Source: Candidatus Fermentibacteraceae bacterium
Lineage (GTDB): Bacteria; Fermentibacterota; Fermentibacteria; Fermentibacterales; JCC-6
Assembly (NCBI GenBank): GCA_027067855.1
Contig: JAMOUX010000011.1
Location: 12,528 to 76,527 of the forward strand
Reading direction: 5' to 3'
Length of the DNA stretch: 64,000 nucleotides
Shown piece by piece: positions 31,904-42,202 of this stretch. Within the stretch, counting starts at the first letter, position 1. Each line of letters starts with the position of its first letter. Made by a program: the position numbers and the translations under genes. The notes under the pieces were generated by a model. It made no database searches. It had not been told where the DNA came from and was given only the letters and a program-made list of their open reading frames with translations.

Positions 31904-33244
31904 TCAGGGTCCGACGAAGAAACGCCTTTGGGGGTTGTCTTCCACCGTGGCCGCCACCAGGCGGGCGACCGCCTCTTCCCTGCCGATGCCCGCGCCTCCC
32001 ACATCCTCCAGGCCCCTGGACAGGTCCAGGTCCGGGTTGAAAGCGACAGCCAGCCTTTCTATCCACGGAGAGAAGTTCCCCGTGGAGAGTATCGCGAGGT
32101 CGGGCCGCCTGTCGTCCACGTACTTCAGCACCCAGCCGCCGTAGAGTATATCGTTGTCCGTAACGAAGATCCCGGCGTCCGGAGGCGCGTTCCCGTAAAA
32201 CGCCCGCACCTCTTCCTCCTGGTCGGGAAGGGGCTCCCAGAGAAACACTCCGGCGGCCAGGACCACGGTTCCCAGCGCGGCGGCGGCACGCCGCCCGGCT
32301 TTCTCCTCCACCAGCCCGAAACCCATGAACGCCAGGGCCAGCAGCGTGAAAAGCGTAAGTATGCCCGTCTGGGTCGTACCCGACGCCATGGGGTTCACCA
32401 GCAGCACGAACAGCGCGTCCATAACCGCGAGGAGGAGAAGAGCGGCCAGTATGCGCCGCCCGCCTTCCGAAACGCAGCGCCAGACCCCGGCCGCGGCCAT
32501 GGGAAGCAAAACCGGCCACAGCATTCCCCGGAGGGCATCGAGATGGTTCGCGAGAACCCCGCCCGAAAAGCCGCCCATGCCGTCGCCGTATACCTCCCTG
32601 TAGCCGGCGGCGGAAACCTGCCTCGCGAACCTGCTCCAGGAATCGGCTCCGCCCCAGTCCACCGGCACTCCTCCCGCGGAACCCAGGGGAAGCGCCAGGT
32701 AGAGGCCCAGGCCCATGACCGTTCCCGCGGCGAACGCGAACGGACGGATTCCTTTCCGGCGGTACAGCAGGGGAATGAATGCGCCCATGGGATGAACCGC
32801 CAGGGCCAGGCCGAGCAGGAAGCCGCCTTCCAGGTCCGGAGCGGGCCTTCGCAGGAGAGCCGCCGCATAAAGCACCAGGAGCGGGCAGTACGCATCCCAC
32901 ATGAGCAGCCTTCCCGACACGCCCGGCAACAGCAGGACTCCCGCCGCGAACAATACCCGGGGCAACCCGCGCCTTTCCGCCAGCAGCAACAGCAGCAATC
33001 CGGACAGGACGGCGAACAGCGCTCTCAGGCACGATCTTCCCAGGAACACCCACGACACTCGCGCGAGAAACGACACCAGGGGAAGCCCCGGCGGATGGTC
33101 GACCCCTCCGAGGCGCGCCACCGTCAGGAACTCGCCCCCGTCCTCGACGGGTATTCCCCTCTGCCCCGCGAGATACCCGACCGACACCGTAACGGCGAGG
33201 AACAGAGCCGCCGCGGCGGCCTTCGGGAATCTTCCCCGGATCAA
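31904..33244 (-). CDS. DUF2723/TMEM260-like GT-C membrane glycosyltransferase (protein O-mannosyltransferase-like)
   Basis: N-terminal VEDGGEFLTVARLGGVDHPPGLPL matches the DUF2723 signature (D.GE....A..LG..HPPGYPL). About 11 TM helices. A TTG start overlaps the pilR-like stop by 2 nt (cgTTGAtc). Confidence 0.55.
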   Translation of the reverse strand: MIRGRFPKAAAAALFLAVTVSVGYLAGQRGIPVEDGGEFLTVARLGGVDHPPGLPLVSFLARVSWVFLGRSCLRALFAVLSGLLLLLLAERRGLPRVLFAAGVLLLPGVSGRLLMWDAYCPLLVLYAAALLRRPAPDLEGGFLLGLALAVHPMGAFIPLLYRRKGIRPFAFAAGTVMGLGLYLALPLGSAGGVPVDWGGADSWSRFARQVSAAGYREVYGDGMGGFSGGVLANHLDALRGMLWPVLLPMAAAGVWRCVSEGGRRILAALLLLAVMDALFVLLVNPMASGTTQTGILTLFTLLALAFMGFGLVEEKAGRRAAAALGTVVLAAGVFLWEPLPDQEEEVRAFYGNAPPDAGIFVTDNDILYGGWVLKYVDDRRPDLAILSTGNFSPWIERLAVAFNPDLDLSRGLEDVGGAGIGREEAVARLVAATVEDNPQRRFFVGP

Positions 33245-40426: not shown

Positions 40427-42202
40427 TCACTCGTTGGCTATTGTCTCTTTGATCACCTCGTCGAAGGTGGTGAGACCCGCTTCGAGTTTCCTTATCGCCG
40501 CTTCCCTGAGGTTTACCATCCCCTTGGCCAAGGCTGCCTTTTCGATGTCTATGCTGTTGGCATCGCTCTCTATGAGCTTCCTTATATCCTCGTCTATCGC
40601 CATGATCTCGAAGATGCCCACCCTGCCTTTGTAACCGGTGTTGTTGCAGTACGAACATCCCGTCCCGGTGTAAAGCTCGACCCCTTTGAACCTGGCCGGA
40701 TCCATTCCCGCCTCTTCGAAGGCGCTGTCCGGTATGCTCACCGGAACCTTGCATCTGGAACATATCCTCCTGATCAGCCTCTGGGAAGCTATGCACACCA
40801 GGGACGTGCTCAACATGAACGGCTCGGTGCCGATGTCGATGAGCCTGTTAATAGTGCTTGGGGCATCGTTGGTATGGGTGGTGGAAAGCACCAGGTGACC
40901 GGTGAGGGCCGCCCTGATCGCTATTTCGCTGGTCTCCTTGTCCCTTATCTCTCCCACCATGATGATGTCGGGATCCTGCCGGAGGTAAGCCCGCAGGGCG
41001 TTGGCGAAAGTCAGCCCGACTTCCTCGTTCATCTGGACCTGGTTGATTCCCTTCAGGTTGAACTCGACGGGGTTCTCCGCGGTCATAATGTTGACTCCCA
41101 CGTCGTTGAGTTCGGTCAGGGCCGAGTACAGGGTGGTCGTCTTGCCGCACCCGGTGGGCCCGGTCACCAGCACAATGCCGAAGGGCCGTCTTATGGCCTT
41201 CCTGAAAACCTTGAGGGGTTCTTCCTCGAAGCCCAGCTTGTCCAGGTCGAGTATCACGGCGGAACGGTCCAGCAGACGGACCTCCACCTTCTCGCCGAAC
41301 AGGGTGGGCAGCGTCGCCAGCCTGAGATCCACGAACCTGTCTCCCACAAGTATCTTCTGCCTGCCGTCCTGGGGCAGGTTGTGTTCGGCTATATTCATAC
41401 CGCCCAATATCTTCAGTCGGCTGACCATCGCCGACCGGTACTTCCTGCTGGGCCTCATGACCTCGTGCAGGACGCCGTCTATCCGGAATCTCACCCTTAC
41501 GTATTTTTCGAACGGCTCGAAATGAATGTCGCTGGCTCCCCTCCTGACGGCATCGGCTATCAGGCTGTTGACCAGCTTCACCACGGGCGAGTCGGCAACC
41601 TCGAAGTTCAGGTCCTCTTCCTCGAGACCTTCCTCGTCGTCCTCTTCGACGACCATGGACTCGAAGACCTCGTCGCCCACCAGCAGGTTCTCCTCTTCGG
41701 AGATGCCCTGTATGCCGTCTTCCCCCTGGGCGCCGACCCCGTTTCTCTTCGACTCCTCCACGGGAACGATGGCTTCCGCTTCCTTGTAATACTTGCTCAG
41801 GGCCTTATTCATCATGCTGGACGCACAGACTCTGGGTTCTATGTCCATGCCGAGGGAAAACCTCAGGTCGTCTATGGCGAAAAGGTTGTTGGGGTCCACC
41901 ATGGCCACCACCAGCTTCCTGCCCTCCCGCCTTATGGGAATGACCTGGTATCTTTTCGCCACCTCGGCGCTCAACAGGGATATCGTGTCCGGATCTATTT
42001 CCATTTCATCCACGTTGACGCTATCGACGCTCTGCTGCCTGGCCAGGAACTTGTTCAGGGCATCCTCGGTTATGGCATTTATCTGAACAAGGTGGTACCC
42101 GATCCTGTTTCCTTCCTTCTTCTGCCTGTTCAGCGCTTCGTCGAGCTGCTTATTGGTTATGATGCCGGAATTAAGCAGGAGCTGACCCAGTCTTATGTTC
42201 AT
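40427..42202 (-). CDS. pilB: GspE/PilB-family type IV pilus assembly ATPase (PilB paralog 2)
   Basis: T2SSE_N (MNIRLGQLLLNSGIITNKQLDEAL...), acidic linker (VVEEDDEEGLEEED), Walker A GPTGCGKTTT and Zn motif CSRCKVP...CSYCNNTGY. Confidence 0.85.
   Translation of the reverse strand: MNIRLGQLLLNSGIITNKQLDEALNRQKKEGNRIGYHLVQINAITEDALNKFLARQQSVDSVNVDEMEIDPDTISLLSAEVAKRYQVIPIRREGRKLVVAMVDPNNLFAIDDLRFSLGMDIEPRVCASSMMNKALSKYYKEAEAIVPVEESKRNGVGAQGEDGIQGISEEENLLVGDEVFESMVVEEDDEEGLEEEDLNFEVADSPVVKLVNSLIADAVRRGASDIHFEPFEKYVRVRFRIDGVLHEVMRPSRKYRSAMVSRLKILGGMNIAEHNLPQDGRQKILVGDRFVDLRLATLPTLFGEKVEVRLLDRSAVILDLDKLGFEEEPLKVFRKAIRRPFGIVLVTGPTGCGKTTTLYSALTELNDVGVNIMTAENPVEFNLKGINQVQMNEEVGLTFANALRAYLRQDPDIIMVGEIRDKETSEIAIRAALTGHLVLSTTHTNDAPSTINRLIDIGTEPFMLSTSLVCIASQRLIRRICSRCKVPVSIPDSAFEEAGMDPARFKGVELYTGTGCSYCNNTGYKGRVGIFEIMAIDEDIRKLIESDANSIDIEKAALAKGMVNLREAAIRKLEAGLTTFDEVIKETIANE

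Follow-up and report, generated by a model that had tools for sequence, protein, structure and literature searches.

The 64,000-nt stretch of DNA analysed here (the window), part of a 178.6-kb metagenomic contig of a Candidatus Fermentibacteraceae bacterium (JAMOUX010000011.1), was found to carry an operon for the core of a type IVa pilus. Extension of type IV pili is usually explained by one homo-hexameric ATPase, PilB. The operon is a standard type IVa pilus core operon with an unreported variation, namely an ancient pair of adjacent pilB genes on one platform, PilC, together with a gene coupled to pilR that encodes a minimal TMEM260-like glycosyltransferase of the GT-C type. In a full-text literature search no account of a conserved pair of tandem PilBs with a single PilC was found, and the paired PilBs that did come up (Clostridium, Synechocystis, Saccharibacteria and Haloferax) are encoded at separate loci only.

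Gene content of the operon and its host

The open reading frames (ORFs) of the window were scanned with Pfam and NCBIfam/TIGRFAM models, and gene starts were compared with the public gene call. Between 31.3 and 42.2 kb the minus strand carries, in this order and all intact, pilB2, pilB1, pilT, pilC, a PilS-like kinase gene, a PilR-like activator gene, the GT-C gene and pilA. The upstream copy of PilB, PilB2 (591 aa, 40427–42202), and the downstream copy, PilB1 (601 aa, 38610–40415), both match the MshEN (T2SSE_N) and T2SSE families of Pfam, and their genes are separated by an 11-nt spacer, cGGAGGcacgg (40416–40426), that carries the ribosome-binding site of pilB1. A longer ORF of 728 aa for PilB1 (38610–40796) is a start-codon artefact, as both the homologues and the public gene call start at the ATG at 40415. 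The start codon of pilT (37539–38609) abuts the stop codon of pilB1, and its product of 356 aa is a PilT retraction ATPase with 487.7 bits on TIGR01420 (cut-off 319.1). PilC (402 aa, 36315–37523), with two T2SSF domains, is the sole PilC of the locus; its best NCBIfam match is the Myxococcus-type PilC with 500.6 bits, under the cut-off of 700.

The PilS-like sensor histidine kinase (553 aa, 34625–36286) has an N-terminal membrane region followed by the PAS, HisKA and HATPase domains of Pfam, and it occupies the same position in related loci. The PilR-like sigma-54-dependent response regulator (463 aa, 33241–34632, the longest ORF extending to 34662) includes the domains Response_reg, Sigma54_activat, AAA_lid_14 and HTH_8. 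It is followed by the genes for the glycosyltransferase (446 aa, 31904–33244) and for the pilin PilA (126 aa, 31373–31753). The junctions from pilB2 to the glycosyltransferase gene measure 11, 0, 15, 28, -8 and -4 nt; the 8-nt overlap is that of the public-call pilR start (34632) with the kinase stop, and in the 4-nt overlap the TTG start of the glycosyltransferase gene and the TGA stop of pilR are fused as TTGA. The 159-nt intergenic region upstream of pilB2 (42203–42361, minus strand) is likely the start of an operon that would extend from pilB2 to the glycosyltransferase gene. It includes candidates for sigma-70-like promoters, TTTACA-16-TATACT (10/12) at 42265–42238 and two weaker sites, all of them consensus matches only.

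A reading of this DNA made earlier from the letters and ORFs alone (the sequence-only reading) had given the same gene order and strand, the 11-nt GGAGG spacer and the coupling of the glycosyltransferase gene to pilR, and each of these was recovered as described. It had further called the synteny deltaproteobacterial-type. The gene order agrees with that description; its distribution does not, as the order occurs in many phyla and the host belongs to the Fermentibacterota. Both PilBs and the membrane glycosyltransferase have all their closest homologues in this phylum (formerly Hyd24-12), namely in Candidatus Aegiribacteria, Fermentibacter daniensis and Sabulitectum, and a deltaproteobacterial origin was thereby ruled out. 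Fermentibacterota are members of the FCB group, are abundant in anaerobic digesters and are thought to depend on type IV pili; the description of the phylum in 2016 lists type IV pilus genes, without flagella, and is silent on the motor genes (PMC5030696).

A survey of related loci, limited to one genome per species, returned 80 loci, in all of which the pilT and pilC context of PilB recurs. The order PilB-PilT-PilC-kinase-sigma-54 regulator was seen in Gemmatimonadota, Krumholzibacteriia, Zixibacteria, Acidobacteriota, Aminicenantes, Myxococcota and others, nearly always with a single PilB. Genes for LptF/G, an SprA-like protein, PilB2, PilB1, PilT, PilC, the kinase and the regulator are arranged identically in Fermentibacter daniensis, in Sabulitectum and in four further genomes.

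The two PilB ATPases

Judged by model scores and by matches to known structures, both copies are of the PilB type and not of the GspE type. On the PilB model TIGR02538 (cut-off 675.65) PilB2 scored 677.4 bits, above the cut-off, and PilB1 629.9 bits, under it, with PilB still its best-scoring model; on the GspE model TIGR02533 (cut-off 630.25) PilB2 scored 576.8 and PilB1 576.1 bits, both under. The best PilB structures of the Protein Data Bank (PDB), from Geobacter and Myxococcus, gave 601 bits with PilB2, whose best match is the Geobacter protein, and 513 bits with PilB1, against 405 and 391 bits for the best GspE/EpsE structure (Vibrio). The Pfam scores of the two proteins were 443 and 424 bits for T2SSE, and 77.9 and 42.6 bits for MshEN. 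In each of the clades to which the copies belong, conservation reaches 95% or more for the Walker A motif, Asp box, Walker B motif, His box, conserved arginines and four cysteines, and for this reason both PilBs are predicted to be active. The sequence-only reading had described two full-length PilB-type ATPases, each with a T2SSE_N domain, an acidic linker and a tetracysteine motif (CxxC...CxxC), and all of these elements are present in both proteins. Neither copy proved to be a canonical GspE or a pseudogene, the outcomes named there as counting against it. The sequence-only reading overlooked an asymmetry within the shared domains, since only the upstream copy retains the MshEN motif for cyclic di-GMP (c-di-GMP).

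In the published definition of the MshEN motif, the backbone amides of Gly residues and two Gln residues provide the only polar contacts (PMC5013675). The N-terminal region of PilB2 is a 53-residue domain of two 24-residue motifs joined by a 5-residue spacer, RLGQLLLNSGIITNKQLDEALNRQ-KKEGN-RIGYHLVQINAITEDALNKFLARQ, and the key Gly, Leu and Gln residues of both motifs are 93–100% conserved in the PilB2 clade. The equivalent region of PilB1 reads RLAMMLLESGMVTQDDIDRIAAEY-GPGEI-ELADQLVLAGLVPEDLITEFLAEI. In the PilB1 clade Gly is replaced by Ala in both motifs, and neither Gln nor the Arg of motif II is present. NF053729, the NCBIfam hidden Markov model of the c-di-GMP motif (cut-off 38 bits), was scored on the N-terminal 150 aa, since ORF starts vary; PilB2 reached 64.5 bits (61.6 at full length) and PilB1 16.5 bits. 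Within the first 60 residues (ND0) identity is 64% among PilB1 and 65% among PilB2 proteins, and 24% between the clades. The PilB1 N-terminus has invariant residues specific to its clade, such as the GPGE spacer. As its conservation within the clade equals that of PilB2, this N-terminus was remodelled and is not in decay. The MshEN domain of PilB2 should bind c-di-GMP.

Both states of the domain have counterparts elsewhere. Gating by c-di-GMP has been shown for MshE and for the PilBs of Chloracidobacterium and Myxococcus. PilB2 resembles MshE of Vibrio cholerae and these other MshEN receptors in passing NF053729 with a tandem motif; it differs from MshE in being of the PilB type by whole-protein score and in its place within a pilT/pilC operon, and PilB1 fails the motif. 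PilB1 is reminiscent of the PilBs of Xanthomonas and Pseudomonas, in which ND0 and ND1 have the MshEN topology without the c-di-GMP residues and are used for protein docking, the motif-less ND0 binding PilZ-FimX, with PilZ as the docked adaptor (PMC8389850). Unlike those proteins, PilB1 shares its operon with a PilB that bears the motif.

The two copies are 43% identical over 584 residues. They fall into separate clades of more than 110 sequence clusters each, with Fermentibacterota throughout; mean identity is 70% within the PilB1 clade, 75% within the PilB2 clade and 44% between them. At 50% clustering, among 1.8 billion representatives, the entire PilB1 clade collapsed into one representative, and the other full-length matches with a single ATPase core were at most 46% identical. 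All trees were built by neighbour joining (NJ) with Kimura distances. In the tree of the ATPase core with 135 representatives, each clade was monophyletic in 100 of 100 bootstrap replicates, and PilB1 and PilB2 were never strict sisters. None of the Fermentibacterota loci with enough flanking sequence was without either copy.

Tandem PilBs were found outside the Fermentibacterota in an unclassified metagenome-assembled genome (MAG), GCA_964396635 (locus L005), in WOR-3 (L022), in a related MAG (L037), and in Edwardsbacteria (L041), Omnitrophota (L075) and UBP2 (L013). The copies are spaced by 12 nt in the L005 MAG and overlap by 1–8 nt in WOR-3, the L037 MAG and Sabulitectum. UBP2 (UBA5202) has three full-length PilB genes in tandem ahead of pilT (positions 6428–11761 of its locus), and Candidatus Edwardsbacteria (2447–7648 of its locus) has two PilBs and a further upstream copy split into pieces of 370 and 177 aa, by a frameshift or an assembly error.

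A further NJ tree covered the PilBs of all fetched loci. Apart from the pair of Omnitrophota and the first of the UBP2 copies, the tandem PilBs all fell in a 23-member clade (bootstrap 17), which divided into an 'upstream' subclade (bootstrap 67–69) and a 'downstream' subclade (10–18). The PilB1 proteins of Fermentibacterota grouped with the downstream copy of the L005 MAG (97–98) and the PilB2 proteins with its upstream copy (82–84). With the ATPase core, same-genome copies came out as sisters in 0–1 of 100 replicates; the full-length alignment gave such pairs in no more than 5 of 100. Copies that correspond to PilB2 and PilB1 in position, upstream and downstream, are present in WOR-3, UBP2, Edwardsbacteria and the L005 MAG. 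From these trees we conclude that the duplication is older than the separation of Fermentibacterota from, at the least, the lineage of the L005 MAG. It is probably older, too, than the separation from WOR-3, UBP2 and Edwardsbacteria, the deeper nodes being read from distance trees only. A recent tandem duplication was ruled out by the identity of 43–44%, the phylum-wide clades and the separation of same-genome copies. The sequence-only reading had spoken of a duplicated PilB, a word that suggests a local event; in these trees the copies are distinct old clades, fixed across the phylum and with positional orthologues in other candidate phyla.

The difference in motif extends to these lineages in part. 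On NF053729 the upstream and downstream copies scored 72.8 and 52.9 bits in WOR-3, 74.0 and 48.3 bits in UBP2, 77.6 and 47.3 bits in Edwardsbacteria, and 66.0 and 68.6 bits in the L005 MAG. As the downstream copies of three lineages score lower and yet pass the cut-off, and both L005 copies are canonical, the clean division into a sensing and a blind copy is specific to Fermentibacterota, atop a broader trend.

A different arrangement of two PilBs was noticed in Patescibacteria, where proteins of about 1000 aa (P0120 and P0241–P0254; positions 5123–8167 of locus L006) contain two complete ATPase cores in one chain. Their named members are from Candidatus Moranbacteria, for example the NLC30515.1 cluster, and no description of such fused proteins was found in the literature searched. 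An origin by fusion of PilB2 with PilB1 was ruled out, the halves having no specific affinity to either. These proteins resemble the pair described here in bringing two PilB cores together, in one polypeptide there and in adjacent genes here; they differ in their single N-terminal MshEN region and in the superphylum to which they belong.

Glycosyltransferase, pilins and neighbouring genes

The glycosyltransferase encoded between pilR and pilA had no Pfam match at the default threshold. In a relaxed search PF11028 matched residues 35–68 only, with 16.5 bits (E=0.0076) and a gathering score of 24.2 that was not reached. The family of this protein comprises 81 clusters, all from Fermentibacterota, of which a few are annotated DUF2723, and weak matches to PF11028 were present in 29 of 38 aligned members (E at most 0.01; best 1.3e-5). 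Compared with the PDB, the family profile had a single match, human TMEM260 (9rql), with E=6.3e-8 over positions 31–390 (360 positions). The two share the signature (V/I)P..D.GE...A...G..HPPG.P. Residues D35 and H50 are invariant in the family and align with D52 and H67 of TMEM260, which are essential for donor binding there; the invariant D365 is one position off the residue aligned to the TMEM260 catalytic base, D441.

In the AlphaFold2 model, which is confident (pLDDT 87.7, pTM 0.89), a membrane core of many helices is followed by a small C-terminal domain of alpha/beta type. The top Foldseek matches of the model in the PDB were without exception GT-C enzymes, STT3, AftA, AglB, ALG9 and Pmt4, with probabilities of 0.99–1.0 and query-normalised TM-scores of 0.40–0.46. 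An acceptor-recruitment domain of tetratricopeptide repeats (TPR) was found neither as a TPR match nor as TPR helices in the model, and the protein ends with the periplasmic, Rossmann-like C-terminal domain of about 100 residues. Profile and predicted fold support its assignment as a minimal, divergent GT-C glycosyltransferase of the TMEM260/DUF2723 lineage. The DUF2723 label of the sequence-only reading is thus upheld as to lineage and falls short of the Pfam threshold. Human TMEM260 has in common with it the signature and the succession of a GT-C fold and a small Rossmann-like domain; unlike it, TMEM260 and DUF2723 proteins have 707–729 aa, against 446, and TPR 'fingers', and the family described here is restricted to Fermentibacterota.

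Fermentibacter and two further genomes have the gene between pilR and pilA. The Sabulitectum locus lacks it (positions 17098–17338 of L002); there the element GGCATG-N4-ATGC, described below, and a pilin start come within 100 nt after pilR, so that the insertion is not found throughout the phylum. The enzyme would act in the periplasm as a protein O-glycosyltransferase dependent on polyprenyl-phosphate sugars. Pilin glycosylation enzymes encoded next to pilA include TfpO/PilO and TfpW of P. aeruginosa and PglL of Neisseria, TfpW being GT-C-like. Like these, the glycosyltransferase is a polytopic membrane protein encoded beside the major pilin gene; unlike them, it is encoded upstream of pilA, coupled to pilR, and not downstream, and there is no detectable sequence relationship.

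PilA has the leader MKKG/FTLIELM and four Cys residues, and matches N_methyl of Pfam and TIGR02532. A strong intrinsic-terminator-like hairpin (31323–31350, minus strand) begins 23 nt past the pilA stop, with a 12-bp stem of which 9 pairs are GC, followed by a T-run. A second pilin paralogue of 118 aa, also with N_methyl, is encoded at 27925–28281 on the same strand. About 50 nt upstream of each pilin start there is a sigma-54-type -24/-12 element on the minus strand, GGCATGaatcATGC at 31804–31817 ahead of pilA and a second copy, GGCATGttttATGC, at 28324–28337. Their common form, GGCATG-N4-ATGC, conforms to the core of sigma-54 promoters, GG-N10-GC, and occurs exactly twice in the 64 kb, both times ahead of a pilin gene (expected 0.08; two or more in 0 of 100 shuffles), and the same element precedes a pilin fragment in the Sabulitectum locus. 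A scan with a generic sigma-54 consensus allowing mismatches gave no enrichment, with 13 matches against 18 expected, so that significance was reached by the locus-specific element only. A membrane HisKA kinase and an NtrC-type sigma-54 activator near pilA, together with the -24/-12 element, constitute a PilS/PilR architecture; no PilS- or PilR-specific model was among the matches listed. From the elements ahead of the pilin genes, the PilR-like activator may be supposed to control both pilins.

Two plus-strand genes (28395–31318) part the pilins, one for a 350-aa protein without a family match and the other for a polytopic membrane protein of 624 aa (29444–31318), which is possibly GT-C-like, with weak matches to PMT_2 (E=0.0013) and LIC_10190 (34 bits, cut-off 100). 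The latter gene is convergent with pilA and is present at this position only in L004, the window's own contig. In L001, L008 and L009, which comprise Fermentibacter daniensis and two more relatives, the pilin genes stand directly in tandem, and the plus-strand genes look like a local insertion. Altogether three polytopic GT-C-like membrane proteins flank the pilins, encoded at about 26364–27914 (plus strand), 29444–31318 (plus strand) and 31904–33244 (minus strand), with weak matches, in that order, to the putative glycosyltransferase family LA_3751/LA_3752, to LIC_10190/PMT_2 and to a TMEM260-like protein; fold and profile evidence was obtained for the last only.

Directly upstream of the operon, at 42362–47962 on the minus strand, is a gene for a giant outer-membrane protein of 1866 aa with an SprA_N domain (Pfam, 60 bits), which is a conserved context of the pil operon. 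The gene immediately before pilB, and in the same orientation, is SprA-like in 25 fetched loci of Fermentibacterota, UBP2 and Gemmatimonadota, which include L001, L002, L008–L010, L013, L019, L020, L024, L026, L028, L030, L032, L036, L038, L042–L044, L048, L061, L074, L084 and L085. Where full-length in other loci the protein has 1830–2419 aa, and no secretin gene was found nearby. This neighbourhood may reflect inherited synteny or a functional link of a type IX secretion-type translocon with the pilus operon.

Among the window ORFs scanned, there was no Pfam match to a secretin, PilM/N/O/P or a prepilin peptidase, in agreement with the absence of pilMNOPQ, pilD and secretin genes observed earlier. 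A second ATPase of the PilT/PilU family (369 aa, 12318–13427, minus strand; TIGR01420 424.8 bits, cut-off 319.1) is 43% identical to the PilT of the operon and is encoded 24 kb away from it, so that the window holds four motors of the T2SSE family. DprA, a natural-transformation factor (22382–23425, minus strand), and FtsK (18983–21319, minus strand) are encoded 4.5–9 kb from the second pilin and about 15–20 kb from the pil operon, a possible hint at a pilus for DNA uptake. Further ORFs have a coding-like GC content at third codon positions and no Pfam match at E 0.1 (55825–57984, minus strand; 24711–25595, 13481–14911 and 9725–10810, plus strand); another with the same property (58790–60118, minus strand) has a faint match to DUF6340 only.

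How two PilB motors may share one platform

Taken together, the data are tentatively read as two alternative homo-hexameric extension motors working on one PilC/PilT machine, one of them gated by c-di-GMP and the other not, a reading to which a probability of about 45% is assigned. Transcription would probably start between the SprA-like gene and pilB2, in the gap of 159 nt, and proceed through pilB2 to the glycosyltransferase gene, and PilS/PilR would then activate the sigma-54 promoters ahead of both pilin genes. Homo-hexamers of PilB1 and of PilB2 would dock, as alternative motors, on the same PilC/PilM base, the PilB2 mode being gated by c-di-GMP and the PilB1 mode being independent of it, either constitutive or under another input. 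As the motif-less N-terminus of PilB1 is under purifying selection, it most likely serves to bind some other partner or ligand. The gene content with its order and spacing, the taxonomy of the nearest relatives, the age and conservation of the paralogues, the state of the motif and the family and fold of the glycosyltransferase are direct results of the analysis; the operon boundaries, c-di-GMP binding, the stoichiometry of the motors, the control of the pilins by PilR and the substrate of the glycosyltransferase are inferred.

Several observations weigh against this scheme. The tight coupling of the two genes, their strict co-occurrence and their adjacency across phyla suit an obligate hetero-oligomer at least equally well, and fused double-PilB proteins do occur in Patescibacteria. 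The downstream copies of WOR-3, UBP2 and Edwardsbacteria pass the motif cut-off (47–53 bits), and both copies of the L005 MAG are canonical. The deep nodes are weak, coming from NJ only, with bootstraps of 10–18 for the 'downstream' superclade and 17 for the clade of all tandem copies. A complete diderm type IVa pilus machine was not seen, PilM/N/O/P/Q, PilD and a secretin not being found in the window. The glycosyltransferase is not essential to the pilus system, as it is absent from the Sabulitectum locus, and the adjacent pilins would be its most likely substrates from position alone.

The foremost alternative, a hetero-hexamer as also suggested in the sequence-only reading, makes PilB1 and PilB2 obligate partners in a single motor, for example an alternating 3+3 ring, in which the N-domain of PilB2 would sense c-di-GMP and that of PilB1 would have a different role in docking or regulation. 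The short spacers and overlaps of the tandem genes, 11 nt with a ribosome-binding site here, 12 nt in the L005 MAG and 1–8 nt of overlap in WOR-3, the L037 MAG and Sabulitectum, suggest equimolar synthesis; both copies are present in every Fermentibacterota locus with enough flank, their order and adjacency are kept across several phyla, and all catalytic motifs are retained in both. Most of the fused Patescibacteria proteins have intact Walker A/B and His boxes in both cores, so that unlike PilB cores are able to operate in a single assembly. To our knowledge, all solved PilB, PilF and GspE rings (5TSG/5TSH, 5IT5) are homo-hexamers with C2 symmetry; in a ring of alternating A and B, each subunit would face one of the other kind. 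The three tandem copies of UBP2, and possibly of Edwardsbacteria with its fragmented third, misfit a simple 3+3 ring, and the halves of the Patescibacteria fusions have no specific affinity to PilB1 or PilB2, so that they serve as an analogy and not as an orthologous case. On balance, a hetero-hexamer appears somewhat unlikely. The broader proposal that an ancient, obligate two-subunit heteromeric PilB works on a single PilC in Fermentibacterota, WOR-3, UBP2, Edwardsbacteria and relatives, a principle that the Patescibacteria fusions would embody independently, is regarded as slightly more doubtful.

It is improbable that each PilB is dedicated to its own filament or substrate set, whether the two pilins, or a pilus as against a pseudopilus for secretion or DNA uptake. 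The window does hold two pilin paralogues, and DprA is encoded about 15 kb away. In Saccharibacteria two PilBs drive two distinct pili, but each has there its own PilC/PilM/N/O locus (bioRxiv 10.1101/2024.11.25.624915), whereas here there is one PilC and one operon. Moreover, the same sigma-54-like promoter precedes both pilins, tandem pilin pairs are also present in relatives with a single PilB (L014 and L026), and neither minor pilins nor a second platform protein were found in the window. One ATPase per pilin paralogue, as suggested in the sequence-only reading, is left without support by the tandem pilins of single-PilB relatives, the shared promoter and the one PilC, and is weaker than both the alternative motors and the hetero-hexamer.

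A further alternative, in which one copy would be the GspE of a type II secretion system or an MSHA-type MshE that has moved in from a different operon, or else a duplicate that is recent and redundant or is decaying, is most improbable and was ruled out: public annotations do call members of both clades GspE, TadA or PilB, and PilB1 is under the PilB equivalog cut-off, but the PilB model beats the GspE model for both copies (677 vs 577 and 630 vs 576 bits, with both under the GspE cut-off), PilB structures match better than GspE structures, no gsp or msh genes lie nearby, and both ORFs are intact, with conserved motifs and 70–75% identity within clades of more than 110 clusters each, same-genome copies being essentially never sisters.

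Among known systems, the PilT/PilU pair also consists of adjacent, anciently diverged paralogues of one motor type, encoded in one operon and presumably acting on one platform; the function is retraction there and extension here. The pil core of Myxococcus xanthus and Geobacter resembles the present locus in its gene order, in the sigma-54-dependent PilR encoded by pilA and in the short leader of the pilin, and the PilBs of these bacteria are the best structural and sequence matches of both copies. Their clusters differ from it in having one PilB in place of the tandem two; here, in addition, a GT-C gene lies between pilR and pilA, an SprA-like gene is directly upstream, pilMNOPQ is not nearby and the host is a member of Fermentibacterota.

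The PilB pair, adjacent and intact probably since before several candidate phyla split, constitutes a natural experiment on the regulation of extension motors, and a testable case for heteromeric rings or for signal-specific alternative motors on one platform. As soluble ATPases of the cytoplasm with available sequences, the two PilBs can be tested for binding and assembly without the uncultured host, and the significance of the pair would rise substantially if it were a heteromeric motor. The glycosyltransferase is a bacterial enzyme related to, and more compact than, a human O-mannosyltransferase with links to disease, and a plausible substrate is encoded nearby.

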